From the NCBI GenBank assembly GCA_965198005.1, contig CBDAOI010000002.1:64001-128000 (forward strand): 64,000 nt of DNA. The letters run 5' to 3'. A program made the translations under genes and the position numbers. Under the pieces are notes generated by a model. It did no database searches, was not told where the DNA came from, and saw nothing but the letters and a program-made list of their open reading frames with translations. This document shows, one piece after another, positions 40,902-61,378 of the stretch. Source of the DNA: Spirochaetia bacterium (lineage in GTDB: Bacteria > Spirochaetota > Spirochaetia > SZUA-6 > Bin103). Position 1 is the first letter of the stretch. Each line of letters begins with the position of its first letter.

Positions 40902-42095
40902 ATGGTCCGGATGGTGACCAGAATCGCCCTGAAGAACTACAAGAGCATCGCCGCGTGCGACGTGCGACCGGCGGCGCTCTCCTTCCTGGTGGGCCCCAAT
41001 GGGTGCGGCAAGAGCAACTTCCTGGATGCGCTGCGCTTCGTCGCCGAGGCCGTCCGGTGTTCGCTGGACGACGCGCTACGCGCGCGCGGCGGCATGCAGG
41101 AGGTGCGCCGGCGCGCGGGCGGCCAGGCCAACCACTTCGGCATCCGGCTCGACCTGCGGCTGCCGCGGGCCGAGGGCTGGTACGCGTTCGAAGTGGCGGC
41201 GAAACTCGGCGGACGGTACGGCGTGCGCCAGGAGGAGTGTGCCGTGGAGGGTCCGGACGGCCGCAGCTTCTACCGCGTGGTGGACGGACAGGTGGTGGCC
41301 GGCACGATCCCCGATCCACCCGCCGCGGCCGGCGACCGCCTGTATCTGGCCGCCGCGGCGGGGCTGGACGGGTTCCGTCCGCTGTACGAGGGGCTCTGCG
41401 GCATGGCGGTCTACAACCCGAATCCCGCGGCGATCCGGGAACTCCAGGCGCCGGCCCCCGGCGCGCCGCTGCAGCGCGACGGCGGCAACCTGGCGAGCGT
41501 CCTGTCGACCCTCGAGCGCAGCCGGCGGACCGCCGTGGAGGAGTACCTCGCGGCGATCAGCCCCGGCATCAGGGGGGTGGCGGCGCGGGCCGAGGGCGGC
41601 GCGCTCACCCTCGACTTCCGGCAGGAGGTAGGCGGTGCCCGACGCGTGCGCCGGTTCCCGGCCCGCGACGTGTCCGACGGCACCCTGCACGCGCTCGGCG
41701 TCCTCGTGGCGCTGTTCCAGGGCGGCGGCGGAACCGCTCCCCGGCCCACCCTGATCGGCATCGAGGAGCCGGAGGGCACCCTGCACCCGGCCGCCGCCGG
41801 CGTGCTCATCGACAGCTTCACCGAGGCCGGCCGCTCGGCCCAGATAATCGTCACCACCCACAGCCCCGATCTGCTCGACACCGACGCCATCGCCGACCCC
41901 TCGATCCTCGCCGTGCACGTGGACCACGCCGAAACCCGCGTCGGCCCCCTCGACGAAGCGGCCCGCTCCGCCATCCACGACCACCTCTTCACCGCCGGCG
42001 AACTGCTGCGCAAGGACCAGCTCCGCCCCGACCCCGCCCAGTCCGCTCCCCCCCACCTCGACCTGTTCGAGCCGGCTCGACTGATCGCTCCTTGA
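40902..42095 (+). CDS. AAA_21/AAA_15-type ABC ATPase
   Basis: GPNGCGKSN, SDGT, IEEPE..LHP, TTHSPDL. Confidence 0.88.
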   Translation: MVRMVTRIALKNYKSIAACDVRPAALSFLVGPNGCGKSNFLDALRFVAEAVRCSLDDALRARGGMQEVRRRAGGQANHFGIRLDLRLPRAEGWYAFEVAAKLGGRYGVRQEECAVEGPDGRSFYRVVDGQVVAGTIPDPPAAAGDRLYLAAAAGLDGFRPLYEGLCGMAVYNPNPAAIRELQAPAPGAPLQRDGGNLASVLSTLERSRRTAVEEYLAAISPGIRGVAARAEGGALTLDFRQEVGGARRVRRFPARDVSDGTLHALGVLVALFQGGGGTAPRPTLIGIEEPEGTLHPAAAGVLIDSFTEAGRSAQIIVTTHSPDLLDTDAIADPSILAVHVDHAETRVGPLDEAARSAIHDHLFTAGELLRKDQLRPDPAQSAPPHLDLFEPARLIAP

Positions 42096-45089: not shown

Positions 45090-46616
45090 TCATTCAAGCG
45101 GAAGCTCTTGCGGCGCGACAACGTAGCGTACCGGGCTCTTCTCCTTCACCAACGTGCGTTCATCAACGAGGCGCTTCAACCATGGGCCCAAAGTCGTCGC
45201 GGATATCTCCAGCTCGTCGGCGATTGTATTGCGGTCTCTTGGTTCCACGCAAATGCTCTGCACGTAAGAACCGACCTCTCGATAGAGAAGTTCGGCGTAG
45301 GAACTACCCCGATATTGAACTGACGGAGCCGACTCCAAAATCACATCCGACTTCGCTTCGTCGTCCTGCGGTGAGATAACGTAGGTCTCTCTACCAAGCT
45401 TCTCCACGGCTCCGCCAGCGGCAAGCCGCTTCAGCCAGGTATTGGCCATGGTCTTGGGGACTCCCAACTCGGCGGCAACATGCTCGGCCTTCTGAGGTTC
45501 GGCACAGATGCGCGTGACGTACGACTCGACGTCTCGAAGGAGAAGTCGCGCGTAGTCCTGCGGCTGGGGCAATGCATCGGCCGGCGCGGAGATGGGTTCC
45601 GGGCTCGTCGCGCCAATCTCCGGTCCCACGGAGCGTTCGACCTCGCCAGTCGCCGGTTCATGCACAGAGACGACGCGACCAAGAATCTCCTCGATCCCAT
45701 CCGCGTCTTTCGGTTCTGGCCACGGGCGTGCGCCACGATCTTGCAGAGCCTCAAGGCCCGCGGAAGGATCGCCGCTCGAACGCACGAAGACGGGCACGGG
45801 GTACTTTTTCAACTGCTCGACGGCCCCGGACCACGTGCCCCCTCGGTTGAAGTCCGCGTTCACCACCAGACCCGCTTCCGCCAGTGCATAGATCACCTTG
45901 TTGCGCTGCATCGCCTGCGCGACCGTGAATCTCAGGCTCGGGTCGAATGGAGAAACCAGTACGAGCCGCTCTTCCAGCATCAGGTTGCGATGCTCGCGGT
46001 TCATGACCGTCCTCTCCAAGTCTCCGGGCAGCACTCCTACGACGCGGCCACCGGCCTCCAAAGCACCGTTCATGGCGGCCCGATCAACGCCTCTGGCACC
46101 ACCCGAGACCACGGTCAACCCGGCGCCGGCGACCAGCGCTGCAGTTTCCCGCGTGTACTCGATGAGTGGATCAGTAACGTCGCGCGATCCGACAATCGCG
46201 AAGCTCCGGGTATGCATGATCTCTTGCAGTCCACACCCGTAAAGCACGCTCGGCGCATCGTTCTTCAAACGCTGCTTGAGCAACGGTGGGTAGGCTGCAT
46301 CGGCGCGGCTCACGACCCAGATCCCTCGCGTCTGCCAACGCTCCACCGCCTGGCTCAGCAGGAATCCTCGGTTCAGCAATGCTCTCAGGCGAGTCTCGTC
46401 GATCACCTCGCCGCATTGCGCGAGGAGCCGATCAGCCCCCGACTCCAGCAGGTTGGCCGGCTCGGACTGGAGCGATGCCAGACAAGGGGCCAGCTTCCGG
46501 TACTCGCCGGCGGTAAGGATTTGCGCTCGTGGCCCGCGGTTGCCGACGACCAGGGGAGCGGTGAGCAGCAGGATCGCCATGGTGTTGGCGGACAGGCCAT
46601 CGGCCCCGTTCATCAT
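45090..46616 (-). CDS. DprA/SMF-domain protein (RqlI-like) with two C-terminal wHTH repeats
   Basis: APSVLYGCG, AIVGSR, VSGGARGVD, AMQRNKVIYAL, GGTWSGA; follows the RecQ-like gene. Confidence 0.88.
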   Translation of the reverse strand: MMNGADGLSANTMAILLLTAPLVVGNRGPRAQILTAGEYRKLAPCLASLQSEPANLLESGADRLLAQCGEVIDETRLRALLNRGFLLSQAVERWQTRGIWVVSRADAAYPPLLKQRLKNDAPSVLYGCGLQEIMHTRSFAIVGSRDVTDPLIEYTRETAALVAGAGLTVVSGGARGVDRAAMNGALEAGGRVVGVLPGDLERTVMNREHRNLMLEERLVLVSPFDPSLRFTVAQAMQRNKVIYALAEAGLVVNADFNRGGTWSGAVEQLKKYPVPVFVRSSGDPSAGLEALQDRGARPWPEPKDADGIEEILGRVVSVHEPATGEVERSVGPEIGATSPEPISAPADALPQPQDYARLLLRDVESYVTRICAEPQKAEHVAAELGVPKTMANTWLKRLAAGGAVEKLGRETYVISPQDDEAKSDVILESAPSVQYRGSSYAELLYREVGSYVQSICVEPRDRNTIADELEISATTLGPWLKRLVDERTLVKEKSPVRYVVAPQELPLE

Positions 46617-46683
46617 CTCGTGTCTCGTCCGAAAGTGCCGGCAATCGGCGATGCCTGTATCTCGACTATCATCGTCTTCCGTG

Positions 46684-48759
46684 TCATGAAGTGGCGCTGC
46701 TGCCTCCTGCATCAGCCAGGGCCAGGGGCCACACTTCCCCACTGCCGCGGCGCCGAAGCTCCCAGGCGACCACGGTGAAGGTCCAGCGCGAGTCTACCAT
46801 GTCATCTACCAACAGCACGGGCCCGGGAAGCATCTGACGCCGGTCGACCACCAGCGATCCGATAACATTGCGCGCCTGCTTGTCGCTGTTCTCCATCGTC
46901 TTCTGCTCCGGTCGCTCCTCCTTCCGCTCGAGCACCGCTTGAAACGGAAGTTCAAGCGCATGGGCCAGCCGTCTGGCAAAGTCAGGCACCAGATGCGGAC
47001 GCCGGTGCGAGGGCACGGCGGCAACCCAGGTGGGATACGGGGCAGGCTGCCACTTCCGAACCAGGGCCGCGCAGGCGTCCACGAGCTCCTCGGCGAAATG
47101 ATCGTCTCGGTACTTTCCGTCCGCTACCAGGCGGCCCCAGCCGGCATCTCCCCAGACGCACAATGCCATTCCCGGCTGCGCACGATGTTCACGCTCGATC
47201 CACTTGCCGGTTGGCCATTGCTTGCGCGGAACGATCGGCAGGTTCTCGTTGCGGAGGAAGGTGATGGCGTCCCTGACGCTGGCCGGATGCACGGTTGTCG
47301 GCAGGTGGGGCACCTCGGGCGGTCGAAAATCGCCCGGGTCGCCGTCCAGCGACCGGATGAGAAACTCCATGTGGTCGGAGGAGAGATCCACGTACTGCTG
47401 CATCTGTTGCTGCTCTGCCTGCCTGAGTTCGGTGAGCCGTTCCGTCCGCTGCCAGAACGCCTCGCTCAGTCTGGCCGCCGTGAGCTGCCACTTCGTGCCG
47501 AACGTCGCTATTGGCGCGGGTGACTCGAGCGCGAGGAGCTGGATCGTCTTCCGTATGCGCCCGTAGCCGAGGTTGACTTCGGCTGCGATCTCGCGAATCG
47601 ACAGACCCTCCGGGGCGGCCTCCAACGCGTCGAGGACGGCCGCGACCTGATCGCGATTGGGGAATGCGCTCGCTATGAAGTAGTTCGTGATGTCGGTTTC
47701 TTCGGTACCGCTCAGCAGCACGCCGTAGGCCGCATCGAGCGCGCGACCCGCGCGCCCCACCTGTTGATAGTAGGCCACGACCGAGCCTGGCGTCTGGTAG
47801 TGGATGACGAATGCGAGGTCCGGTTTGTCGAAGCCCATCCCCAATGCCGTCGTCGCGACCAGCGCTTTCACCTTGTTGTCAAGGAGAGCCTGCTCCAGTT
47901 CGGGCCGGCGCTCACCTGACTTGCCGGTGTATGCCTCGGCCTCGATGCCGCGCGTCCTGAGCCATCGGGCCACCTGCTCGGCGTCGCGGATCGTGAGGGT
48001 ATAGACGATTCCGCTTCCCGGCAGGTCCAGCAGCAGGTCGGACAGCCACGCGAGCCTTTCCGCCTGACTGGGCAGGCGCATTGTCTGCAGCGCCAGCGAA
48101 GGACGCGCCAAGTCGCCGCGGGAAACCGTCAAGTTCGGGCCAAGGATCTTCTGCAGGTCCTCCATGACCCGATTGTTGGCGGTTGCGGTGGTAGCCAGCA
48201 GACGAAGATTCGGAGGCAAAACGCGGAGGGTGCGTTCGATCCGTCGGTAGTCAGGACGGAAGTCATGCCCCCAGTCGGAGATGCAGTGCGCTTCGTCGAC
48301 GACGAGGAGCGAGACCCGACTGCCGATTTGAGACAACACCTGGTTATTGAAGCGCTCGTTGGCAAAGCGTTCCGGCGCGATGAGGACGATGTCCACCTCG
48401 CCACGGCGTATCGCCGCCTCCACATCCCGCCAGCGCTCCGCATTGTCGGAATTGATGGTCTCGGCCCGCACGCCCATCCGCTCTGCTGCCGAGATCTGGT
48501 TCCGCATCAGTGCGAGCAGTGGGCTGACGAGCAACGCCGGTCCCATGCCGGCCTCGCGCAACAGCTTGGTCGCGATGAAGTAGACGAAGCTCTTCCCCCA
48601 ACCCGTCTTCTGCACCACCAGAAGCCGCCGGCTGCCCTGGAAGACGTGGCGGATCGCTTCTTCCTGGCCTGCCCGAAACCGCGCTCGCGGATCGCCCACC
48701 CCCGCTCGCAGCAGCGCCAGGGCCCGTGCCGAAGAAAAACTCCCTGGTGTCTGTTTCAT
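46684..48759 (-). CDS. RecQ-like helicase with C-terminal phosphoribosyltransferase domain (RqlH-like)
   Basis: QKTGWGKS, DEAHCISDWGHDFRPDY, TATA, ALGMGFDKPD, YYQQVGRAGR; PRT motif VLLVDDMVDSRWT. Confidence 0.92.
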   Translation of the reverse strand: MKQTPGSFSSARALALLRAGVGDPRARFRAGQEEAIRHVFQGSRRLLVVQKTGWGKSFVYFIATKLLREAGMGPALLVSPLLALMRNQISAAERMGVRAETINSDNAERWRDVEAAIRRGEVDIVLIAPERFANERFNNQVLSQIGSRVSLLVVDEAHCISDWGHDFRPDYRRIERTLRVLPPNLRLLATTATANNRVMEDLQKILGPNLTVSRGDLARPSLALQTMRLPSQAERLAWLSDLLLDLPGSGIVYTLTIRDAEQVARWLRTRGIEAEAYTGKSGERRPELEQALLDNKVKALVATTALGMGFDKPDLAFVIHYQTPGSVVAYYQQVGRAGRALDAAYGVLLSGTEETDITNYFIASAFPNRDQVAAVLDALEAAPEGLSIREIAAEVNLGYGRIRKTIQLLALESPAPIATFGTKWQLTAARLSEAFWQRTERLTELRQAEQQQMQQYVDLSSDHMEFLIRSLDGDPGDFRPPEVPHLPTTVHPASVRDAITFLRNENLPIVPRKQWPTGKWIEREHRAQPGMALCVWGDAGWGRLVADGKYRDDHFAEELVDACAALVRKWQPAPYPTWVAAVPSHRRPHLVPDFARRLAHALELPFQAVLERKEERPEQKTMENSDKQARNVIGSLVVDRRQMLPGPVLLVDDMVDSRWTFTVVAWELRRRGSGEVWPLALADAGGSSATS

Positions 48760-48966
48760 GATCCGCGCGCCACTGTTCGCTCGACGTGTCGAGTGCCCTC
48801 TCCCAAAACAAGGTGTAGATGATGCCCAGACACGGGTCAATCCCGTTGATCGCTCCACGAGCTTGTCTCCAGCGCCATCGTTACGGACTACCTTCGCACT
48901 CGCTCGCAGGGCGCGAGCCGGGAACAACAAGCCGGCACCACGGCCATGAACGAAGTCCCTCCCGGT

Positions 48967-51900
48967 TCACGATGACGCGGAGATGCTCAGTATCTCCAGC
49001 GCCTCCTTGCGGTCCAGGTGCGGGTGGGCGAACTGATTTCGATAGCTGCGCAAGCAGCCGTAGCAACTCGAATCGCATCCGCACGCGCCGCTCACACGGT
49101 CCCGAGCGTGCCGGAGCACCGCCGCGAACACCTCTTCGCGCTCCAGTTGAGCAACCAAGCCAGCGCCACCGGGGACGTTGTCGTAGAGCACTATCGACGC
49201 GGTTGTCGATGCCACCGCCGCGGTCGCGTCGACGCCTGCGATCGTGACATTCAGGTCGGTGTCCGGCACCCCCAACCGTTCGGCTGCTCCCAACAGGAGT
49301 GCGTAACCCACGGAATAGGCCATCCACTCGCCGTTCAGGTGGGGCACCTGCAGCCGCACCACGTCCGTAACCAGCTCGTGCCCAAGCGAGAAGTGCCGCA
49401 GCGTACCGGAGCACGGGGTATCCCACGGAGTTCGGTGTTCATGCTCCTGTTCGGTGAGGTGGCTCCCGCACGTGAGACAGATATAGAATCCCTGCCGGTT
49501 ATGCCCCTCGCAGAGAACGACGAGCGTACCGGGCAGCGCCTTCGTCACCTCGATGCCGAACAGTTTCCTCGTCTCCAGACGGACGTCACCGCCGAATCCC
49601 TTGAAGAACGGGCGAGTCGTATACAGCCGGCGCACCCGGCCGCGCGGCTCTTTCGGCTGCTGAAACAGCGCCGTAACGAACCCGAACTGCGGGATGAGAT
49701 ATTGCCTCATCCCCGGTGGCCGCGGTCCGCTGTCCTCGATCTGGGTGAAGTTCCGCGCCTCATTGTAATCGTAGTATGGCGTCTGTAGCGCCTTGCCGGG
49801 TACGATCTTGACTCCGACCGATTCCCACTCCCGCTTGTCCGCTATCACCTTGCCGCCGGGCGCGTACTCGGCGATCGCCTGTGACAGATCCCTCTGCAAC
49901 GCCACTCCGGTGGACTCCCGCGATTGGCCGCTCCGGGTGTCGAGCTCCACCACGTCTACCGGAAATCCATACTTCGGGATGGCCGCCTTGCGCGACAGGA
50001 AGCTCAGGGTCTGCTCTTCCGCAATGGTCCTCATACGACGCTCGATGTGGCCGACTTTAGTCGTCCAGCCTTTCGGCTGCTCCCGTATCAGGACCTCCTT
50101 CGCCTCCTGCATGGCACGATAGTCCGCGCACACCTCCAGTTCGACTTCGGCAAGGCGACTTTCCGGTCCCGCGACGTGATCGACCCACCCGCCGCTGGTC
50201 AATCCGGTGGCTGGGTGCATCGGCTCAGGCACAATGCGCTTCAATGCCGACTGCAGCGCGGCGTTGCCATGGCAGAAACGCTTCAGTTCGGAGACCGCAT
50301 CCGGGGCCTGCCAGTCGCCGACGAACTGCTGTACGTTGATGAAGCGGCCGCCCTTCCCCAGGTCCCTGAAAAACGCCGACAAAGCGGTGGCCGCCATGTG
50401 CCGTACGACGATTTTCGTATTCGTCACCTGCAGACGCGGCGGCTGCAATGGACTGTTGATTATGCGTTCGCACGGTTTCTCGTAGTGATAGAGATCGTGT
50501 GGATTGCGGCGGCAGTAAGTAACGGCGAAGCCTGGAGTCTCGCTGCGACCAGCGCGTCCAACGCGCTGCGTGTAGTTGAATGGCTCCGGCGGTACGTTGC
50601 GCACGAACACCGCCTCCAGATCGCCGATATCGACTCCCACCTCGAACGTAGTTGACGAACTGAGCAGGTGGATGTCTCCGTTTTTGAACCGCTCCTGACG
50701 CTGCCGCGCTTCATCGCTTGCGATCTGCGCCGTGTGTTCTTCGGCATGCAGCGTCGGGGGCAACGACGCGCTCTCGTAGAGGATGCGGTAGTGGTTGTTG
50801 CTTAGCCGCCGTTGGTCGGCTACACGCAACCTGCCGGGACAACGGTTTCTCGGACAAACGGCGCGAATACTGTGCAGGCTGATGCTTGCGCACGTGTCGC
50901 ACTCCCAAATCTCGTCGGATCGAGTAAGTGCGATGCGCAGCCAGCGCGAGTTGAGACGAAACGTGCCATTGGCGCTTCCCCGGGACAAGAGCTGGTCGGC
51001 GGGGCGCGAGTTGCCGTCGCGTGTTCGTAAGACGCTCCACGCCTGCCTCATGAGCCGGATGGACACCGACCGCTTGTCTTCATCGGACAACCCGCTGTCA
51101 GACAGAAGCCGATGCAGGAAATGCGCTACGACAGCCGACGCCGCGGAGCCCCACTGCCTCACGTTGCGACGTCTCCCCGGTGCCCCGATACCGTACGACG
51201 CCTGCGGCCAGGGCGAGACGTCGTTCCAGGCCGGCGCGCCGGCCTCTGCAGGCAGCGCCAACGCGCCGCGCAGACGAAGCTCGTCGAGGAGATATGCAAG
51301 AAGTCCGCGAGTGTCTTGCTCGGACAGACTCCAGGGCGGCATTCGTGCTACCTCCGGCAGCGCTACGTCATCGGGAATCTCGACGCTCCACTTGAGCAGT
51401 CCGACCCCGCTCAACGACAGCCGGCGCTCGTCGGTCAACGCTTCGCTGAGAATCGACTCCAACACCCTTCGCCGTCTACCTTCGGCGGTATCAGAAGCGC
51501 TGAACAGCCCCGCATGATCCCATTGGCTGAGCAATCGGGATCTGAGGTCGTCGATGGACAGCCCCTCGGGAGCGATCGCGCCTTGTTGCAGAGCGCGCAG
51601 CATGAGATTGCGATCGCGCAGCTTGCCGTAGGAGTCCTCGGCGTACCAGGCGAAGAATGCCGCTTCCTGACGGCTGTCCGCAAACGCCAACAGCTTGCGC
51701 CCAGTTTCCGGCAGCAACTCGTGCAGAGCGGTGGCGATGACCGCGTTCGGGCCGTCCGAGCCGTGCACGATCTCCTGCACCGGATCTCCCACGCCGCCAC
51801 GCCGATAGCCACAGGTCGCGCACTCCTTCAATTGATCGGGTTGCTCCTTGTGGGACGCACACTTCGCAACGTGGAGCGCAGCCGGAGCGCCGCAGGTACA

Positions 51901-53253
51901 CCCCGGCGTGGCACTCGCGGCGGCGGACAGGCGGCCGCAACGGCGACACAGTACGTGCGATGCACCAGCACTCGACTCCAACGGCCGATAGTACTCGACT
52001 CCGAAGCCCGGCTGGCTCGGGTCCCGCACCGCCTCCTCCAGCCTGCCGTGACGCTCACGGCCGACGTAATAGTGCTGACCGCATTCGCGACACAGCGCGA
52101 TCTCCAGCGGCACGGATCCGGTCCCGTTGGCCAACTCCCCCTTGCGGTTGAGAACCACTGCGTCCCGGCCCTCGCGGTGAACGAGGAACGCACCTTCCAA
52201 CGCGCGCAGGAACGTATGATACCGCCGCGGCGACCGCTGATCGCCCGGCCGCGACGAGCCGAAGATGACGCCGGACGGCGAAAACGATTCTCCGAACAGC
52301 TCCGCAGCGAATTTCGCCACGGCGGTCTTGTCGTCTTCTCCCTCGCCGGAGGACAGCGTTGCGCTGGTGGCGATGCACCGGAATGGCTCGCTACGCCCGC
52401 CGGTGGTCAGGCGCTGCTTCAGGCGCCGAATCAATATGCCCATCTCCATGCCCTTGGCGCCCCGGTACTGATGCGCCTCGTCCAAGACGATGAACTGCCA
52501 GCGCGTGCCGCGCCCGCCATCGAACAGCGGGCTGTCGTCGGGCCGAATCAGCAGGTACTCGAGCATCGAGTAGTTGGTCAGCAGGATATGCGGCGGCGTG
52601 ATCCGCATCTCTTCCCGGAAGATCAACTCCCCGGTGAGTCGTTCTTGCTCTCGATCCGCCGCGTTGCGCCACGTGTCGCTTCTGCTCTTGGGTGTCTGGC
52701 CGGTGTATTGTCCAAAGGTCGGACGAAAATCCGACCCGGCGATGCTCAGCGATTTCGCTATCTCACCGAGGCGTTCCCGTTGATCGTTGGCGAGCGCATT
52801 CATCGGATAGAGAATCATCGCACGCACGCCCGGTTGACCCAGCTCGCCCGCGAGATGCTGTCGGTACAGCTCGAACAGAATCGGGTAGAGAAAGCTCTCC
52901 GTCTTGCCGCTTGCGGTACCGGTCGCGACCACGACGTTCCGCCGCTCGCCGTAAGCAGCCCGAACCGCGCGCTCCTGGTGTACGTACAGCGGCCCGTGCC
53001 TCAGTCCCGGAAGCAGCCGGTCCGCCATGCCTGGAAAACACTGTCGCGCCAACTCGTGTGCCTCCGCACCGTGCTCGAATCCGCGATCGGGTTCGGGATA
53101 CGGCCCCTTCAGCAGACTCCCCTCCTTCCCAAGAGCGGACTCGAAGGAATCCCGCAGCGCGCGATCTTTGAAGAAGAATGATGTCTTCAGGTAATTCTCG
53201 TAGCGACTTCGAATGGTGTCAGTCCACCGTTCGACGTGTTCTGCTTTGGGCAC
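48967..53253 (-). CDS. Large SF2 DEAD/DEAH helicase with C-terminal DUF1998 (DruE/DpdJ/DrmB/MrfA-related)
   Basis: TGTASGKT, YPMNALANDQ, TNYSMLEYLL, DEAH, TSAT, TFEVGVDIG, QRVGRAGR, DNVPGGAG, CGCDSSCYGCL. Confidence 0.93.
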   Translation of the reverse strand: MPKAEHVERWTDTIRSRYENYLKTSFFFKDRALRDSFESALGKEGSLLKGPYPEPDRGFEHGAEAHELARQCFPGMADRLLPGLRHGPLYVHQERAVRAAYGERRNVVVATGTASGKTESFLYPILFELYRQHLAGELGQPGVRAMILYPMNALANDQRERLGEIAKSLSIAGSDFRPTFGQYTGQTPKSRSDTWRNAADREQERLTGELIFREEMRITPPHILLTNYSMLEYLLIRPDDSPLFDGGRGTRWQFIVLDEAHQYRGAKGMEMGILIRRLKQRLTTGGRSEPFRCIATSATLSSGEGEDDKTAVAKFAAELFGESFSPSGVIFGSSRPGDQRSPRRYHTFLRALEGAFLVHREGRDAVVLNRKGELANGTGSVPLEIALCRECGQHYYVGRERHGRLEEAVRDPSQPGFGVEYYRPLESSAGASHVLCRRCGRLSAAASATPGCTCGAPAALHVAKCASHKEQPDQLKECATCGYRRGGVGDPVQEIVHGSDGPNAVIATALHELLPETGRKLLAFADSRQEAAFFAWYAEDSYGKLRDRNLMLRALQQGAIAPEGLSIDDLRSRLLSQWDHAGLFSASDTAEGRRRRVLESILSEALTDERRLSLSGVGLLKWSVEIPDDVALPEVARMPPWSLSEQDTRGLLAYLLDELRLRGALALPAEAGAPAWNDVSPWPQASYGIGAPGRRRNVRQWGSAASAVVAHFLHRLLSDSGLSDEDKRSVSIRLMRQAWSVLRTRDGNSRPADQLLSRGSANGTFRLNSRWLRIALTRSDEIWECDTCASISLHSIRAVCPRNRCPGRLRVADQRRLSNNHYRILYESASLPPTLHAEEHTAQIASDEARQRQERFKNGDIHLLSSSTTFEVGVDIGDLEAVFVRNVPPEPFNYTQRVGRAGRSETPGFAVTYCRRNPHDLYHYEKPCERIINSPLQPPRLQVTNTKIVVRHMAATALSAFFRDLGKGGRFINVQQFVGDWQAPDAVSELKRFCHGNAALQSALKRIVPEPMHPATGLTSGGWVDHVAGPESRLAEVELEVCADYRAMQEAKEVLIREQPKGWTTKVGHIERRMRTIAEEQTLSFLSRKAAIPKYGFPVDVVELDTRSGQSRESTGVALQRDLSQAIAEYAPGGKVIADKREWESVGVKIVPGKALQTPYYDYNEARNFTQIEDSGPRPPGMRQYLIPQFGFVTALFQQPKEPRGRVRRLYTTRPFFKGFGGDVRLETRKLFGIEVTKALPGTLVVLCEGHNRQGFYICLTCGSHLTEQEHEHRTPWDTPCSGTLRHFSLGHELVTDVVRLQVPHLNGEWMAYSVGYALLLGAAERLGVPDTDLNVTIAGVDATAAVASTTASIVLYDNVPGGAGLVAQLEREEVFAAVLRHARDRVSGACGCDSSCYGCLRSYRNQFAHPHLDRKEALEILSISASS

Positions 53254-55441
53254 GTCGTTGTATCCCCCTTAGTGCATCGATATTGAAACCGTACGCGGTA
53301 TGGCGCCGCCAGTCGATAGGAATATCCACCTGCTTCGCAGCGGCAGCCGTCAGCCCTGCGGCGTGGATCTCGCGCAAACTGAATCCCCTTCCGGGCCGCC
53401 TGCCGCGCCCATGCGTGTGCGTGACGTAGGCACGCAATCGACCGATCTTCAGCGGAGAAAACACGGTTACTTCTGCGTGTTGTGTCACCTTCTCGCCAGT
53501 CATCACCACATCCGGATGCGCATGGAACGAGACAATCTCTGGAACAGCATCAGCGATGACACGGACCAGTGGCACAATGGATGAGCCGCATCGAGCATGC
53601 AATAGAGCATCCTCGTGCAACCAGCTATCGATCTGCGAATCGTCCGCGAAGTCGATGAGAGGAAGCTGTACCGTGCGAATCAAGTCCTCTGTCTGTATTG
53701 AGCGATAGCTTCTGGTCAAGTCATGATCGAATCCCACGTCTACGGCATTGATCTCCCGTGGTAGACGGATCCGAACCACAGAGTCGGAGTTGGCGTGGTC
53801 ACGAAACTCACTGCGCGTCATCGCCAGCCGTGTCGCGCACCAGGGTGCTGATTCCTCTCCTTCGTGCCCAAGACACCACCAAATCCTCGGTAACCTGATC
53901 ACCACCTCGACACTGCCCGATGGAGTCTCTAGCGAGCAGGCAACCTCGTCGGCAGCCGGATACGGAGCCACCATCACGGCCGCTTCCTCTTCCACCCATC
54001 GTTGGTGGGAACCTGGTCTCAACGAGGGCCGAATGGCTGCGCCCTTCACCCCCACGAACTGCACCTTGGTCGGAGTATGGCCTTCTATCGCTGGCGCCAG
54101 CAGCGTTTCCCCGGTGTAGGGTCTACCATTTACGAGGATCTCGCGGAGGCCCTCGACGTAGCGGAATTCGCCATTGTCGCACAGCTTCGTATCGCTGTCG
54201 TACACGCGCACAAAAAAGCGTCCCTGACGTTGATCCAGCACGTCCGCCAACGGGCGTTCCGCGGGCAGGAAGCTTTCCCCGCGCCAGCCGCCATCCTTCT
54301 CTTCGCCGACGCGCGCCCAAGTGACTCCGCGCCCCGGTCTCAGTTCCGGAGGCCTGCCAATGAACAGTCCGCCTTCGGTCGAGTCGTCGTAGAGTCGCTC
54401 GCCGATCAGCGAGAAGCCCGCGCGGGTCAGCTCCAAGTCGCACTCCTCGAAGCCAACGCCGTCCGCTGACGGGTCGCCGTTGCGAAAGAAGTAGTGCGCC
54501 TGGAACGCAGGATCGGCGCTCGCCTCCGGTGCGACCGGCGCGCGCCCCCTGCGGTTCCATCCTGTCGGTGCTATCACGATGAAGTGACCGCGACTGACGG
54601 CGTCGATTCTCCGACCGACACCGCTCCACCTGTCGGCCAACTTGAAGATCATCGGCGCTCGCGCGGTGCATAACGGAAGCTCGGTTGCACTGCCGTCCGC
54701 ATGATCGACGGAGAGAACCCCCGCAAAGGATGAAAGGCGGTACTCGGCCCGTTCCGCGCGTAGGCGGGTGTCGTCGAGCCGAACGCCGGTTACATTGCAT
54801 TCGTCGGGCGCCGACAAGACTACCCCCCATTGCCATGACCCGGGCGCCTTTCGGCATATCAACTCCGGTAGGGCAGGAGGCGGGGCTGGGCGGTTCGCTG
54901 CCCTCGGGACGGCGACCGCAGCGCGCACGCCCCGCCGTGCGCCGTGCCTGCGCGGTGGCCGACGCGGTGTTGTCGCACTACCGCGAGAAGGTTCCGGACC
55001 GTGCTCCGCAGGCTGTTGGGCGATGCGTTGGCCAATTTCTAGCTTGCGGAAGTCCGGCCCGACCAATCGCCTGTCGAGAGTGAAAACGGTCGTCACACCG
55101 AGCTGAGACATCAGCGCGCGGCTGGTTCGGGGGATCAGAGCACCCAGATCGCGCTTGCCCCGGGTAAGGGCTCGGGCATGAAGCCCGGAATCGACCGTCA
55201 GAACCGTCACGCGCGGTTTCAGCTCGGCGAGGAACGCCCGCGCTTTGTCGAATCCGAGCCGTGCCTGCACGAGCGCCAGCAACTCCGCGCACACGTAGCT
55301 GGAAGTGATCAGCGGAGCCCCGGAGCGCAACAATTCGTCCCAGGCCGAACCAACCTGAGCATGCGCCTCATGGGTCGGGTCAAGCAGCGCGTAAAACGCT
55401 GTCGTGTCGATGAATATGGCGTTTCCGTCGGAGCGCTCCAT
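53219..55441 (-). CDS. Multidomain protein: PIN domain, beta-rich middle region, C-terminal eL13 (L13e)-like motif
   Basis: IFIDTTAFYALLD..AEL..FTLD (PIN); RPGRGFSLREIHAAGL..IPIDWRRHT..NIDAL (eL13-like); overlaps the helicase start. Confidence 0.75.
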   Translation of the reverse strand: MERSDGNAIFIDTTAFYALLDPTHEAHAQVGSAWDELLRSGAPLITSSYVCAELLALVQARLGFDKARAFLAELKPRVTVLTVDSGLHARALTRGKRDLGALIPRTSRALMSQLGVTTVFTLDRRLVGPDFRKLEIGQRIAQQPAEHGPEPSRGSATTPRRPPRRHGARRGVRAAVAVPRAANRPAPPPALPELICRKAPGSWQWGVVLSAPDECNVTGVRLDDTRLRAERAEYRLSSFAGVLSVDHADGSATELPLCTARAPMIFKLADRWSGVGRRIDAVSRGHFIVIAPTGWNRRGRAPVAPEASADPAFQAHYFFRNGDPSADGVGFEECDLELTRAGFSLIGERLYDDSTEGGLFIGRPPELRPGRGVTWARVGEEKDGGWRGESFLPAERPLADVLDQRQGRFFVRVYDSDTKLCDNGEFRYVEGLREILVNGRPYTGETLLAPAIEGHTPTKVQFVGVKGAAIRPSLRPGSHQRWVEEEAAVMVAPYPAADEVACSLETPSGSVEVVIRLPRIWWCLGHEGEESAPWCATRLAMTRSEFRDHANSDSVVRIRLPREINAVDVGFDHDLTRSYRSIQTEDLIRTVQLPLIDFADDSQIDSWLHEDALLHARCGSSIVPLVRVIADAVPEIVSFHAHPDVVMTGEKVTQHAEVTVFSPLKIGRLRAYVTHTHGRGRRPGRGFSLREIHAAGLTAAAAKQVDIPIDWRRHTAYGFNIDALRGIQRRAQSRTRRTVD

Positions 55442-55612: not shown

Positions 55613-57697
55613 TCACCGCTGAGGCAGGCTAGGTCGCACCGCGTCCAGAACCACTTCAAGACACTGGTCCAGGTCGCGTGATAGTTCGCGGACGCTGAAG
55701 CGCGTCACCTGCCACCCCTCGGCCTCGATGGCTCGGTCCCGGTTGGAACTCGCTCCCGGTTTCCGAGGAAAGGCAGCCCCATCGCACTCGACGTCCAGTC
55801 GAACCTCCCCGTCTTCGACAGCGACGTCGAGTCGGTGCCCCGCCACCACTGCGCCCGTTCTGGCGGGAACGCCACGGCGCAGAAGCGCCTCGAACAATTC
55901 CATCGCGACCGGACTGTCGAAACCGCTCGCTTCGATCCTGGTCACGTAGCCCGCCAAGCGCCTCAGTACGGTCTCATGTGCGATCCACGCTTCGATGTCT
56001 CCAATGATGACCAGGCGACGGCGCGCACGCGTCAGAGCGACGTTGATCAGATTCCGGTCGGACACTTGCCGGACCACAGCCTCGGCCTCGGCGCGATTGA
56101 TCCGGCTCCGCCCGCGCGGACCGCGGGCGGCCTGTCCCGCAACTCGTACCCACTCGATGGCACGCAAGCCGGCGGGTGGCTTCCGGTCGCTGCACAGCTC
56201 CATGTTCCCGTCGTAGAACTCGGTATTGGCGAAGCCGATGATGGCCGGATGCGACCGGAAGTGCAGGTCGAGGAACAGGGGCGGCGCCACGATCCGCGCC
56301 ACCGCCAAGTCGAAACAGCTATGGTAGCGGTAGCTGAACGCTTCGGCGCGCTCCTCCGCCAAGCCCCATCTCCGCGCAATGAGCCGCTCACGCGCGTGGC
56401 TGAGCGTAGTGACGTGAATCAGTTGTCGCTGATCGCCAATGATCAGCGCACGCTCCGCACGCACGAGCAACGGTAGCGCGGACGCCACGTCGCACTGTGA
56501 CGCCTCGTCTATCACCACCAGATCGAACAGCCCGGGTTGCAGCGGCAGATTGGTGCGAGCGGAAAGATTCGTCACCTGCGACCTCCTCCCTGAGAGCGGC
56601 GCCCCCGGCTCGCACGACGATCCCGTGCGGGGAGGTCTCGCGCAGCCGATCGACCACGACATCCACCGCCTTGTTGTTCTTCGACGCCAGCAGCACGGTC
56701 TCGCCGCGGCATACGGCGGCGGCTACGACATTCACCAGCACCTGCGACTTTCCGGTCCCGGGCGGGCCGGTTACCACCGTGAACTGGTTCGTCATCGCAG
56801 CGTGCACCGCGTGATCCTGCGCCAGGGAGGAGGGTACGAGCGTCGGATGCGCCTCCGGGAGCGGCGGTTCCGCAACCGAACCGGTACCCAACAACACGGC
56901 GGCCGGGCCACGCCGCAGCAGCTCCGGCCGATTCGCCAGTTCGTGCAGGTCGACGACAAGGTTCCGCACGAATGGCAGGCGGCCTGACGTTGCCATCAAA
57001 CCTCCGGGCTCTCATCCACCGCTTTCACGAATGCCTCACGCTCATCCCGAGCGAAACCGAGAAGATCAAGCGCGAAGGGATTGAGCTCCACGAACTCACC
57101 GGGGCGTTGGCAACGCCATGTTCCGTGTTGGAACTGTAGTCGCACCTCGGTGAGCAGCAACGGGGATGCGGCGATGTCACCCGGTCCCGAGGACGTGCAC
57201 CCCACGATGAGCGGCCAGCCGGCTATCTGCGTCTCGCCCACAGCCCGTGCGCGCCGCTCGCACCAGTCGCGGCTGTCCGGATCATCGGATACCGAGATCG
57301 AGGCATGGAACGGGCTCTTGCGGCCGGCGAGCTCGATATGATCGCGACTGCCGGGAACCAAGCGCAGCGAGCCGGCGGCTTCCGCTTCTACGCAATCGCG
57401 AAAGAATCCGACCAGGGCGACCAACTCGTCCTCAGGTGGTTTGTTCCGGTCGACCATCGTCTGCCGCGCGTGGATTTCAGGGGCGCCGTTGAACATGCGC
57501 ACCTTGCCCTGGACGCGAACCTGATCGCCGGATTGCGGAGCCAGGCCGGCCTCCCACCACACGACCGTCAGCTCATCGTCGCCTTGCGCGCGTAGCGTCG
57601 CCTTCACCGCCGGGCCGTTCCCGGTCGCGAAAGTCCGTCGCCTGCCTACCTTGCCCACCACGTCGACCGATTGTCCCTCTGTCAGGGGGTGCTGCAT
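55613..57697 (-). pseudogene. OB-fold plus SF1 (AAA_11/AAA_12, Upf1/DNA2-like) helicase plus DUF559/Vsr-like nuclease, fragmented
   Basis: Three frames: OB-like N-terminus; GPPGTGKS..SKNNKAVD; DEASQ, GDQRQL, HFRSHP, NVALTRAR, DVECDG..GWQVTRF. The motif V region is missing. Confidence 0.85.
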
Positions 57698-57896
57698 CAC
57701 TTCGTCTCCACGTCGGGTGGCCGGGGCCACACCATGCCACGCTACCGCGGACGTGATCGCGCGAACCGATCGGCGTGATAGTATAGAATACTTGGCATAA
57801 TGGCCCTCCCGGCGGCCGATCGCCCTGCCGTCTGCCGGGCCCGACGCAGGAGCCCGCCCGATAACTGATCTCCCGCGCGGCAAGGAGCAGGTTGAA

Positions 57897-58106
57897 ATGG
57901 AGTACACGGCTATCGTCAAACGTAGCGGAGAGTGGTGGATCGGCTGGATCGAGGAAGTGCCCGGCGTCAACTGCCAGGAACGCACTCACGAGGAGCTCCG
58001 CAAGAGCCTCGCCGAAGCCCTCTCCGAAGCCCTGGAATTCAATCGTCGCGAGGCTCGCGCCGCTGCAGGTGACAACTACCGCGAGGAAAAAGTCGCCGTG
58101 GCATGA
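57897..58106 (+). CDS. hicB: HicB family antitoxin
   Basis: YTAIVKRSGEWWIGWIEEVPGVNCQERT. Confidence 0.9.
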   Translation: MEYTAIVKRSGEWWIGWIEEVPGVNCQERTHEELRKSLAEALSEALEFNRREARAAAGDNYREEKVAVA

Positions 58107-58360: not shown

Positions 58361-61300
58361 GTGGAGCAGCGGTTCTTCGAACAACCGATCCTCAACTCGC
58401 CGTACGAGTACCCCGCCCGGCACTGGGAGCTGGACGCGAACCGGCAGCCCACCAACCGCATCGTGGAGCGCCGCCGCACGGTGTCGTTCATCACGCCGAT
58501 CCCCGCCGCCCGCAAGCGGCGTGCGAAGCAGCAGGAGATGGTGTTCGACCAGGCTGCCAGGGCGCTGGCGACCGACGGCCAGCAATACGACCTGACCGCC
58601 ATCATCGAGAGCGTGCGCCACAGCGTCGGCGAATGGCGCAGGCTGCCCCGCGCCCAGTGGCGGGTCACCCCCGAGACCGCGCGCCTGCTGGAACACTGGC
58701 GGCACCACCAGTTCAGCGACATCCGTCCGTTCTTCTGTCAGGTCGAAGCGGTCGAGACCGTGATCTGGCTGACCGAGGTGGCCCCCGGCCCCGGACGCGA
58801 GGGGCGGCAGTTCGTGCAGCGCCTGGAGGCGGCCAACGAGGAGGCCAATCCCGGCCTCGCCCGGCTGGCGCTCAAGCTCGCCACCGGCGCCGGCAAGACC
58901 ACCGTAATGGCGATGCTGATCGCGTGGCAGACCATCAACGCCGTGCGCCATCCGGGCAGCCGCCGCTTCACGCGCGGCTTCCTGGTGGTGACCCCCGGCC
59001 TCACCATCCGCGACCGGCTGCGGGTGCTGCAGCCCAACGACCCGGACAGCTACTACCAGAGCCGCGAGCTGGTGCCGCGCGACCTGCTCGGCGACCTGAA
59101 CCGGGCCAAGATCGTCATCACCAACTACCACGCCTTCATGCCGCGGGAGACGCAGGAGATCTCGCGCGGCGGGCGCGCCCTGCTGCAGGGCCGCGGCCCC
59201 GAGCTGCGCACGCTGGAGTCCGAGGGTCAGATGCTGCAGCGCGTCATGCCCGGCCTGATGGGCATGAAGCAGATCATGGCGTTCAACGACGAGGCCCACC
59301 ACTGCTACCGCGAGCAGCCGGACAAGGAGAGCGACGAGGCCAAGCTCACGGGCGACGACCGCGAGGAGGCCAAGAAGAACAGCGAAGCCGCGCGGGTATG
59401 GATCTCCGGCCTGGAGGTGGTACAGCGCAAGCTGGGGCTGAGCCGGGCGATCGATCTCTCGGCCACGCCGTTCTTTCTGCGCGGCTCCGGCTACGCGGAG
59501 GGCACCCTGTTCCCCTGGACGATGAGCGACTTCTCGCTGATGGACGCGATCGAGTGCGGCATCGTCAAACTGCCGCGCGTGCCGGTGGCCGACAACATCC
59601 CCGGCGCCGACATGCCCAAGTTCCGCAACCTGTGGGAGCACATCGGCAAGCGCATGCCCCGCAAGGGGCGCGCCAAGTCCGTGGCGCTCGACCCGCTGAG
59701 CATTCCCGTCGAGCTGCAGACCGCCCTCGAAGCCCTCTACGGCCACTACGTGAAGATCTTCGACCAGTGGCGCGAAGCCGGCATCGAGGTGCCGCCCTGC
59801 TTCATCGTGGTGTGCAACAACACGTCAACCTCGAAACTGGTCTACGACTACATTTCCGGGTTCCAGCGCCAGCATGAGGACGGCTCCTCGTCGCTGGAGA
59901 ACGGACGGCTGGAACTGTTCCGCAACTTCGACGACTACGGCAACCCGCTCGCCAGACCGCACACCCTGCTGATCGACAGCGAACAGCTCGACTCCGGGGA
60001 AGCGCTCGGCAGGGACTTCCGGGTGGCCGCGACCGATGAGATCGAGCGCTTTCGCCGGGAGATCATCGAACGCACCGGCGACCGCCGCCAAGCCGAGAGC
60101 CTTTCCGACCACGACCTGCTGCGCGAAGTGATGAACACCGTCGGCGTCGCGGGCCGGCTCGGGGGCGCCACCCGCTGCGTGGTATCGGTGTCGATGCTCA
60201 CCGAGGGCTGGGACGCGCGCACCGTCACCCACATCCTCGGCGTGCGCGCCTTCGGCACGCAGCTTCTGTGCGAGCAGGTCGTCGGCCGCGCCCTGCGCCG
60301 CCAGTCCTACGATCTGAATGAAGAGGATCTGTTCGACGTCGAGTATGCCGACGTGCTCGGCATCCCGTTCGACTTCACCGCCGAGCCGGTGGTGGCCAAA
60401 CAGCCGAAGCCACGCGAGACCGTACCGGTCAGGGCGATCACCCCGGATCGGGATGCGTGCGAGATTCGGTTCCCGCGCGTCCAGGGCTACCGCGTCGAAC
60501 TGCCCGAAGAGCACGTGGACGCAACGTTCGACGACGACTCGACCCTCGTGCTCACCCCGGAGATCGTCGGTCCTTCCATCACCCACAACGCCGGGATCAT
60601 CGGCCAGGGCGTCGACCTGAACCTGATCCACCGCCGGGATCTGCGCCTTTCCACGCTGGTCTACCATCTCACCAAGACCCTGCTGGAGAAACACTGGCGC
60701 GACCCGGAACAGAACCCGAAGCTGCACCTGTTCGGCCAGCTCAAGCGGGTCACGCGCCGCTGGCTGGACGATCACCTGGTCTGCAAGGGCGGCACCTACC
60801 CCGCGCAGCTCATGTACCAGGAGCTGGCGGATCAAGCCTGCACCCGCATCACGCGCGCCATCGTGGCGCGGCATCTCGGCGACCGCGCAGTCACGGCCGT
60901 GCTCGACCCCTACAACCCGACCGGCTCCACCATCCACGTCAACTTCACCACCTCGAAGCGGACCCGCTGGCAAACCGACGCGCGCCGCTGCCACGTCAAC
61001 TGGGTAGTCTGCGACAGCGACTGGGAGGCCGAATTCTGCCGCTTCGTCGAGTCGCAGCCGTCGGTACGCGCCTACGTCAAGAACCACGGTTTGGGGCTGG
61101 AGGTCCCCTACCGGTACGGCTCCGAGGCGCGCACCTACCTCCCCGACTTCATCGTGCTCGTCGATGACGGCCACGACGACGACGACCTGCTCCACCTCGT
61201 GGTCGAGATCAAGGGCTACCGCCGCGAGGACGCCAAGGAGAAAAAAGCGACCATGGAGACCTACTGGGTACCAGGCGTGAACCGCTCCGGCGCCTACGGC

Positions 61301-61378
61301 CGCTGGGCCTTCGCCGAGTTCACCGACGTGTATACGATCCAGGAAGATTTCCTGCGTGCGGTCGGGAAGAGCCAGTGA
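58361..61378 (+). CDS. Type III restriction Res subunit-like helicase-endonuclease (BPTD_3080-like family)
   Basis: PILNSPY, LATGAGKT, NDEAHHCY, SATP, MLTEGWD, QVVGRALRR, nuclease motif YLPDF..EIKG. Confidence 0.9.
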   Translation: MEQRFFEQPILNSPYEYPARHWELDANRQPTNRIVERRRTVSFITPIPAARKRRAKQQEMVFDQAARALATDGQQYDLTAIIESVRHSVGEWRRLPRAQWRVTPETARLLEHWRHHQFSDIRPFFCQVEAVETVIWLTEVAPGPGREGRQFVQRLEAANEEANPGLARLALKLATGAGKTTVMAMLIAWQTINAVRHPGSRRFTRGFLVVTPGLTIRDRLRVLQPNDPDSYYQSRELVPRDLLGDLNRAKIVITNYHAFMPRETQEISRGGRALLQGRGPELRTLESEGQMLQRVMPGLMGMKQIMAFNDEAHHCYREQPDKESDEAKLTGDDREEAKKNSEAARVWISGLEVVQRKLGLSRAIDLSATPFFLRGSGYAEGTLFPWTMSDFSLMDAIECGIVKLPRVPVADNIPGADMPKFRNLWEHIGKRMPRKGRAKSVALDPLSIPVELQTALEALYGHYVKIFDQWREAGIEVPPCFIVVCNNTSTSKLVYDYISGFQRQHEDGSSSLENGRLELFRNFDDYGNPLARPHTLLIDSEQLDSGEALGRDFRVAATDEIERFRREIIERTGDRRQAESLSDHDLLREVMNTVGVAGRLGGATRCVVSVSMLTEGWDARTVTHILGVRAFGTQLLCEQVVGRALRRQSYDLNEEDLFDVEYADVLGIPFDFTAEPVVAKQPKPRETVPVRAITPDRDACEIRFPRVQGYRVELPEEHVDATFDDDSTLVLTPEIVGPSITHNAGIIGQGVDLNLIHRRDLRLSTLVYHLTKTLLEKHWRDPEQNPKLHLFGQLKRVTRRWLDDHLVCKGGTYPAQLMYQELADQACTRITRAIVARHLGDRAVTAVLDPYNPTGSTIHVNFTTSKRTRWQTDARRCHVNWVVCDSDWEAEFCRFVESQPSVRAYVKNHGLGLEVPYRYGSEARTYLPDFIVLVDDGHDDDDLLHLVVEIKGYRREDAKEKKATMETYWVPGVNRSGAYGRWAFAEFTDVYTIQEDFLRAVGKSQ

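Follow-up and report, generated by a model that had tools for sequence, protein, structure and literature searches.

A DruE-like helicase with an eL13-tailed partner in a Spirochaetia genome: a candidate defence cassette with the layout of type III Druantia and a different set of parts

A stretch of 64,000 nucleotides (nt) from a Spirochaetia bacterium (GenBank assembly GCA_965198005.1, contig CBDAOI010000002.1, positions 64,001 to 128,000), the whole of which is called the window here, carries two overlapping genes whose pairing raises a question. The downstream gene encodes a helicase resembling DruE, the helicase of Druantia defence systems. The upstream gene encodes a partner of 740 amino acids (aa) which ends in a domain resembling the ribosomal protein eL13; DruH, the partner of DruE in type III Druantia, is not detectable in it. 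What do these two genes form? The answer given here, which is probable on balance, is a Druantia-III-like defence cassette which is built from different parts and has a different sensor or adaptor. The window is GC-rich and both genes are found on the minus strand. Their parts are as follows.

53219..55441, minus strand: partner gene, 740 aa, with a PIN-like head, basic linker, immunoglobulin-like (Ig-like) beta core and eL13-like tail
55064..55417, minus strand: PIN-like head (aa 9-126), from the Pfam PIN match and the VapC26 alignment; D12, E53 and D123 align
54875..55063, minus strand: low-confidence Pro/Arg-rich linker, which holds PRRHGARR (54932-54955; family consensus PRxIGGRR)
53492..54874, minus strand: predicted all-beta core of tandem Ig-like sandwiches (aa 190-650), AlphaFold2 (AF2) pLDDT ~90, with signatures PELICR, RQGRFF and LPRIWW
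53237..53434, minus strand: eL13-like tail (aa 670-735), with GRGFS at 53378-53392 and DWRR at 53303-53314; Pfam, NCBIfam, PDB and fold match
53219..53270, minus strand: coupling region, made up of the 35-nt overlap between partner stop and helicase start (53219-53253) and the purine run AAGGGGGA (53263-53270)
48967..53253, minus strand: DruE-like helicase of the YprA/MrfA family, superfamily 2 (SF2), 1428 aa, GTG start; PADLOC, Pfam and PDB sequence search
52351..52980, minus strand: RecA1/DEAD domain of the helicase (aa 92-301), with GTASGKT at 52900-52920 and DEAH at 52471-52482
50542..50751, minus strand: RecA2/Helicase_C domain (aa 835-904), with QRVGRAGR at 50545-50568
49051..49308, minus strand: MZB (DUF1998) zinc-binding domain (aa 1316-1401), Pfam E 3.1e-12

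The two genes are closely coupled. The partner ORF (open reading frame) overlaps the GTG start of the helicase by 35 nt, as an earlier reading of the window, made from the sequence only, had stated. That sequence-only reading had also placed a purine-rich stretch in the eL13-like coding end; it is the run AAGGGGGA, which falls within the codons of the last residues of the eL13-like domain, and 9 nt separate its end from the GTG. In related loci (see below), the helicase match begins 8 or 17 nt ahead of the partner stop in 10 cases and 1-34 nt past it in 12; these spacings are taken from the starts of helicase matches, not from mapped start codons. The longest possible ORF of the partner extends to 55585, which gives 788 aa. 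On comparison with relatives, the ATG at 55441 is the real start and the 740-aa form the real product, because 21 of the 22 closest cluster representatives share the Met at which the PIN head begins; the exception, P0026, has another N-terminus. The exact 740-aa sequence is already on record (P0005). One relative, P0009 (788 aa, 82% identical to the partner), has a precomputed annotation of PIN plus MZB and is the sole match to a DruE model among 58 relatives; it is probably a gene call running into the helicase, or a frameshifted locus.

The pair is conserved across genomes, as the sequence-only reading anticipated for a genuine system. A search seeded with a 13-sequence alignment gave 31 loci encoding a relative of the partner, all of them in metagenome-assembled genomes (MAGs). 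A DruE-like gene is present directly downstream of the partner, on the same strand, in 28 of these. The three without it are a 2.4-kb contig (L015), a locus with a fragment match only (L039), and L010; L027 has a partial helicase match. According to their titles, the MAGs belong to at least ten phylum-level lineages, and include Latescibacterota, Limisphaerales, Binatia, Rhodothermales, Dehalococcoidia/SAR202, several Gammaproteobacteria, Thermoanaerobaculia/Acidobacteriota, Gemmatimonadota, Nitrospinales, Spirochaetia and others. Across the loci, the helicase is 57-71% identical and the partner 34-48% identical to the window proteins. No flanking gene family is common to more than four of the 31 sources (loci L009-L038 and the window); the four loci with the most-shared flanking family are mostly from Latescibacterota. 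In the window's own phylum, a full match was found in one of 401 sampled genomes, which is the window's own; two others have 70-residue partial matches to an optional Ig domain only. Since the pair is conserved across lineages while its flanks vary, and since it occurs in one of 401 genomes of its own phylum, it is, by these comparisons, a self-contained and horizontally mobile two-gene cassette.

The partner family is also large in metagenomes, to judge from sequence searches. A word-index search returned 124 partner relatives, none of which is named by any source. An exhaustive profile search gave 1509 cluster representatives at E <= 1e-30, the lower ranks of which take in unrelated Ig-repeat proteins such as P0170. 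The best 150 of the representatives, clustered at 50% identity, all have E < 1e-180.

The helicase is DruE-like. It has the motifs GTASGKT, DEAH, TSAT and QRVGRAGR and six CxxC pairs, and Pfam identifies DEAD (5e-18), Helicase_C (3.2e-10) and MZB/DUF1998; the SF2 motifs, CxxC clusters and DUF1998 motif described from the sequence are therefore as first read. No nuclease domain was found in the Pfam scan, which gave these three domains only, and the C-terminus lies 27 aa past MZB. The tandem PLD nuclease domains of Druantia III-A DruE were likewise not found in it by Pfam. Among the PADLOC models, the helicase matches DruE3 (PDLC00037) at E 2.3e-153 and 511 bits, in three stretches, and DruE1 (PDLC00013) at E 2.6e-151 and 504 bits. 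In the PDB sequence search it matches 9tu7_Y (2108 aa, E 8.6e-81), 9wae_A (E 3.2e-45) and MrfA/YprA 6znp (E 8.4e-20). Entry 9tu7 is a DEAD/DEAH box helicase, and its PDB entry series adjoins that of DruH, 9tud. The NCBIfam model DECH_helic gives E 8.2e-38, a score far below that model's cutoff. Zinc-ribbon inserts of the DruE type are present, by comparison with Bell et al. 2025 (bioRxiv 10.1101/2025.09.15.676423), which describes an ARMADA/Druantia superclade of helicases. A plasmid search with the helicase returned 136 records; all are below 60% identity and none covers 80% of the query.

To calibrate these scores, reference Druantia and ARMADA systems were taken from an E. coli plasmid, which carries Zorya II, DruH (1119 aa), DruE (2104 aa) and ARMADA II together, and from the Pseudomonadales MAG G405. 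In the latter (locus L043, G405:C1:2572000-2590000), a canonical DruH (1108 aa) is followed by a compact DruE (1678 aa), which reaches 1951 bits on DruE3 in one stretch. Several results of this comparison weigh against a close tie to type III Druantia. The ARMADA II helicase of the E. coli plasmid, which is not a DruE, reaches 347 bits on DruE3, so matches to DruE models alone are no proof of Druantia membership. In a matrix of summed bits, the window helicase scores 332 and 366 against the two type III DruE forms (366 against the compact DruE of G405) and 308 against ARMADA II, to which it is about as near; the III-A DruE and the compact, DruH-paired DruE score 1057-1063 with each other. Against a DruE1-like helicase of the cyanobacterium Tolypothrix, the window helicase scores 470. 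By these pairwise scores, the helicase does not nest among the type III DruE forms; on sequence comparison it is a DruE-like member of the ARMADA/Druantia superclade. The proposal that the module is Druantia-III-like but distinct holds for its layout, its strong DruE3 match, its non-DruH partner and the conservation of the pair. As pairwise scores do not group the helicase with type III DruE, "Druantia-III-like" fits the layout better than the lineage.

Other members of this group of systems offer a further comparison. With ARMADA, TALON and DISARM, as Bell et al. 2025 describe them, the cassette shares the helicase superclade, a beta-barrel zinc module and an OB-CON-MZB canopy. It differs from them in that its neighbours in the 31 sources include no conserved BrxHII-like helicase, PglX-like methylase, NERD nuclease, TPR-CSD or TBP gene, and in that the helicase has no C-terminal Vsr or RNase H domain by Pfam.

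The partner sets the cassette apart from type III Druantia. It matched no PADLOC family, and the PADLOC DruH models matched none of its 58 relatives. As a control, E. coli DruH matches 10 DruH models and the distant DruH of G405 matches 12. Aligned by hhalign, the family profile reaches a probability of 0.17% with E. coli DruH and of 0.93% with an alignment of 30 DruH sequences. By precomputed annotation, PF27205 and PF27201 occur together in 41 of 43 relatives of DruH; among the 120 listed relatives of the partner, no protein has the two. When the family profile was searched against the PDB sequence set, all 53 matches were eL13 chains; DruH 9tud is in the set and was unmatched. By every test available, all of them comparisons of sequence, the partner is not DruH. 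Nor do both genes match any described system over their full length, an outcome which would have undone the claim of a distinct module.

The partner nevertheless parallels DruH in its build. Its AF2 model, built on 58 relatives, has an all-beta core at residues 190-650, which bears out the description of the partner as beta-rich; head and linker are of low confidence. The motifs PELICR, RQGRFF and LPRIWW are family signatures of this core, located in invariant columns. In a Foldseek search of the PDB, the whole model gave generic tandem-Ig matches only (titin, LILRB3, contactin, S-layer). VIA-align placed the predicted core on single Ig-like domains of SiiE, complement MG and filamin at Z 5.5-6.8. 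DruH 9tud is absent from the fold-search rows shown; the library ends at 2026-04-08 and may not hold 9tud, so its absence is uninformative on fold likeness. A look-up of partner residues 186-740 in the ESM Atlas gave no usable match. As modelled, the architecture of head, Ig string and tail resembles that of DruH as solved in 2026.

This likeness raises the alternative that the partner is a true DruH which has diverged to an extreme degree, and that the cassette is a far member of Druantia III-B. We consider this unlikely. The layout is the same, with the partner upstream and coupled to a DruE-like helicase, and so is the build of head, Ig string and C-terminal module (bioRxiv 10.64898/2026.05.13.724313). 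Published III-B systems moreover consist of a compact DruE without PLD and one partner (bioRxiv 10.64898/2026.05.13.724758). However, the DruH models which find both the E. coli and the G405 protein find no partner relative, the hhalign and domain results point the same way, and the only PDB matches of the profile are to eL13. The helicase groups with neither type III form by pairwise score. G405 also carries the present cassette (L024), as a system separate from its DruH-DruE pair; the two coexist in one genome.

A Druantia-III-like cassette with unlike parts can be set out against the two known forms of type III. With Druantia III-A (DruH-DruE of E. coli and P. aeruginosa; 9tu7, 9tud) it shares a two-gene operon in which the partner is upstream of a DruE-type YprA/MZB helicase with zinc-ribbon inserts, a partner made of a head, an Ig-like string and a C-terminal module, and a place in a defence island. 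It differs in that its helicase has 1428 aa rather than 2104, lacks the tandem PLD domains and is 28-35% identical to E. coli DruE, in two blocks. Its partner has no detectable DruH homology; the head is PIN-like, where DruH has a helical exonuclease head, and the tail is an eL13-like domain of ~70 aa, where DruH has a helical domain of ~250 aa. Druantia III-B, or type III-like, consists of a compact DruE and DruH (Bell et al. 2025; M. smegmatis MSMEG_1253/1254, PMC13316683). The cassette resembles its G405 representative (1108 + 1678 aa) in that the genes overlap, one partner precedes the helicase, and the helicase is compact and lacks PLD domains. The G405 partner is a canonical DruH, recognised by 12 PADLOC DruH models, and the G405 helicase scores 1063 against E. 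coli DruE and matches DruE3 in one stretch at 1951 bits; the window helicase, with its 511 bits in three stretches, is set apart from it.

The tail of the partner resembles eL13. Pfam Ribosomal_L13e (PF01294) matches aa 674-714 at 30.0 bits, against a curated cutoff of 24.9, and covers positions 55-95 of the 180 in the model. The NCBIfam model of archaeal L13e (NF008914) gives E 4.1e-12 and 45.6 bits, which does not reach its whole-protein cutoff of 96. Yeast eL13 from the PDB matches the tail at E 2.1e-5, with 18 of 31 residues identical in the core motif. In the AF2 model, residues 670-735 have pLDDT 85-93. VIA-align superposes predicted residues 667-740 on solved eL13 chains at Z 8.5-10.0 and a root-mean-square deviation of 1.7-3.9 A over 64-74 residues, 26-39% of which are identical. 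All 29 rows at Z >=8.5 and also rank 30 (Z 7.7) are ribosome entries; among these rows, the chains which were checked against the PDB sequence matches are eL13. The eL13 likeness of the tail, first read from the sequence, is more than chance, as sequence and predicted fold agree. What is shared with eL13 is a conserved core; the tail differs in being the C-terminal module of a 740-aa bacterial protein and not a free ribosomal subunit. Bacterial ribosomes are not known to have a counterpart of eL13, and an eL13-like domain is not expected in bacteria. No published text linking eL13 or L13e to defence, to helicases or DUF1998, to conflict systems or to Druantia was found in a search of the main text of articles.

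At the other end of the partner is a PIN-like domain, which the sequence-only reading did not describe and which was recognised by Pfam. The Pfam PIN match has 24.6 bits and is narrowly over the cutoff of 23.6. The best PDB match of the head is VapC26 (5x3t; E 8.7e-6), with which 120 residues align. Three of the four canonical acidic residues, D12, E53 and D123, align with the first, second and fourth of VapC26. Free-standing VapC-type PIN toxins differ from this head in that it is fused to a large protein and has Arg at the third catalytic Asp. Between head and core, the linker is otherwise disordered and variable, and the basic motif PRRHGARR/PRxIGGRR is family-wide; it lies ~20-25 residues ahead of the first core strand. 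The motif might serve as a docking peptide or contact nucleic acid.

The head also supplies objections to an effector role for the PIN domain. Its third Asp position is an Arg, in LIPRTS, by the VapC26 alignment, and each of the 21 PIN-bearing relatives has either Arg or Gln there. Catalytic competence is doubtful because of this replacement, and the PIN head may be catalytically dead. PIN heads are in addition limited to the window's subclade, and were found in 9 of the 58 sampled relatives. As it is confined to the closest subclade, the PIN head cannot, by its distribution in sequence, be the general effector of the family; most members are without an evident nuclease.

The eL13-like tail, the S17, S6 and NusB modules of relatives (see below) and the PIN-like head together raise the possibility of an RNA-directed system, in which tails and PIN target phage transcripts, R-loops or ribosome-bound RNA and not DNA. 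The tails derive from rRNA-binding and other RNA-binding proteins, and the protein that the PIN head matches best in the PDB, VapC26, is a ribonuclease. This explanation is nonetheless very doubtful. The characterised relatives of the helicase, MrfA and DruE, act on DNA, and DruH did not degrade single-stranded RNA (bioRxiv 10.64898/2026.05.13.724313 and 10.64898/2026.05.13.724758). The PIN head is short of one catalytic acid, and most family members have no PIN. The claim that the partner adds an RNA-related domain thus stands in one sense only: "RNA-related" describes the origin of the tail from eL13, and not an activity.

Both ends of the partner are exchanged among its relatives. Of 120 family representatives, 85 have a strict tail motif, G[KR]GF[ST], ~47 residues before the C-terminus. 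It is present in 19 of 30 loci, with near-variants in two more. The Pfam L13e model matches 26 of the 58 relatives and 17 of 50 representatives chosen for long extra ends; these 50 are a subset of 150 and, having been picked for that feature, give biased frequencies. In P0041 the tail is ribosomal S17 (residues 678-744 of 752), in P0080 it is ribosomal S6 (residues 847-925 of 958), and in one of the 50 selected representatives it consists of the N- and C-domains of ribosomal S5. In P0078 and P0121, NusB is inserted ahead of the eL13 tail. The modules of P0041, P0078, P0080 and P0121 may be gene-call fusions. The tails of L020 and L033 are plain Lys/Arg-rich stretches, and a Pfam scan of the non-eL13 tails of L020, L022, L031 and L033 found nothing. 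A likeness of the Dehalococcoidia tails to HARE-HTH was considered and dropped, as the Pfam scan did not support it.

Two further variants were observed. In L037 (7388-11461, plus strand), from a Thermoanaerobaculia MAG, the partner is a continuous ORF of 1357 aa. The part ahead of the core contains sigma-70 regions 2, 3 and 4 (E 1e-22 to 1e-25) as well as a stretch resembling region 1.2, and the eL13 tail is degenerate. In P0109, P0118, P0099-P0103, P0116, L029 and L030, an insert of ~65 residues is found in the eL13-like tail, between GKGFS and DRRRR.

The swapping of tails for unrelated folds argues against a single specific function of the tail, and it is here that a decoy model has to be considered. 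In this model, the swappable ends imitate components of the cellular transcription and translation apparatus and lure the proteins with which a phage takes over the cell; once such a protein binds or modifies its bait, the helicase would be switched on. The alternative end modules (S17, S6, S5, NusB and the sigma-70 head) are all components of gene expression, a single functional class for which chance fusion of gene calls should show no preference, and the partner, at 34-48% identity, evolves faster than its helicase, at 57-71%. Yet the dominant tail is eL13, which is not known to have a bacterial ribosomal counterpart and so cannot mimic a host protein. All of the modules are also small, basic nucleic-acid binders; a simpler model, in which they grip nucleic acid, explains them equally well. 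Some tails are plain Lys/Arg-rich stretches, several of the modules may be gene-call fusions, and the representatives were a biased pick. We rate the integrated decoy as unlikely. In a wider form of the idea, the ends, eL13-like and sigma-70 modules included, would be either baits or probes close to the ribosome or RNA polymerase, which detect phage take-over and license the helicase. This too is doubtful; if true, such a sensor would in principle play the part in bacteria that integrated decoys play in the immune receptors of plants.

The Druantia-III-like reading is also informed by the surroundings of the cassette, which contain the following genes.

46684-48930, minus strand: PsyrT, a RecQ-type helicase with a phosphoribosyltransferase-like end (E 1.1e-266)
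45090-46742, minus strand: PsyrA, DprA/SLOG with a TrmB-type helix-turn-helix (E 3.7e-127)
55613-56999, minus strand: broken superfamily 1 (SF1; DNA2/Nam7-type) helicase with a DUF559/MTES_1575 endonuclease end, upstream of the partner
56996-57985, minus strand: OB-fold protein, upstream of the partner
58361-61378, plus strand: 1005-aa ResIII helicase with a restriction-endonuclease end; weak matches to type III restriction endonucleases
40902-42095, plus strand: AAA_21/AbiEii-type ABC ATPase, in the lower-GC stretch

A complete PsyrTA pair (45090-48930) is thus found immediately downstream of the helicase. GC content drops from 0.70-0.74 to 0.60-0.66 over 44-64 kb, and the cassette sits in this lower-GC defence island. 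The SF1 helicase gene at 55613-56999 is split over two ORFs and has an internal deletion. A fuller, 400-aa copy of it is found ~11 kb away and outside the window (L002, G000:C2 ~129.7-132.8 kb); after this copy come decayed remains of the PIN head and of the spacer upstream of it. The fuller SF1 copy and the PIN-head remnant point to a segmental duplication of this junction.

These surroundings, with the distribution of the pair, also bear on the plainest alternative, that of a housekeeping DNA-repair helicase of the MrfA/YprA kind with an accessory protein and no part in defence. The helicase does share the MrfA/YprA core, as its matches to 6znp and, far below cutoff, to DECH_helic indicate. 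A housekeeping gene would be inherited vertically, but the pair is patchy even within its own phylum, at one genome of 401, and its helicase is 57-71% identical across unrelated phyla with variable flanks. It adjoins PsyrTA in a lower-GC island and has DruE-type zinc-ribbon inserts (Bell et al. 2025). A housekeeping role is highly improbable. Phage defence is suggested for the cassette by its family and its context.

A mechanism can be proposed by analogy with the characterised systems. The helicase, which has no nuclease, probably loads on phage DNA that is single-stranded or forked during replication and uses ATP to unwind it, as would be expected from characterised DruE. The partner would be a fast-evolving and variable sensor or adaptor. 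Its Ig-like beta core probably holds the helicase, so that the two proteins would bind each other physically, and its small, basic eL13-type tail probably grips nucleic acid, in the role of the DruH C-terminal domain. DruH is described as binding single-stranded DNA at the interface of Ig5 and the C-terminal domain, and ATP competes with this binding (bioRxiv 10.64898/2026.05.12.722862). In the subclade of the window, the PIN-like head occupies the place of the DruH nuclease head and, if active, may supply the cleavage that the helicase lacks.

Mechanistic work on Druantia III dates from 2026 and is all on DruH-DruE. The partner family, for which no paper was found in a search of main texts, appears to be previously undescribed, and what the window adds to it is a PIN-headed subclade and a clean eL13 tail. 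The cassette indicates that a DruE-like helicase can pair with an unrelated partner of the same overall build; for this reason, the design of an Ig string with end modules, rather than DruH itself, is likely to be the functional unit. The models of PADLOC 2.0.0 recognise the helicase and no partner family. As only the helicase is recognised, a two-gene Druantia III call by PADLOC 2.0.0 is unlikely, and loci of this type would be under-counted. The replacement of eL13 by S17, S6, S5 or NusB provides a natural series for the study of how helicase-based immunity recognises infection. Because most members have no evident nuclease, the family also poses the question of how a helicase alone, or a helicase with host factors, stops a phage.

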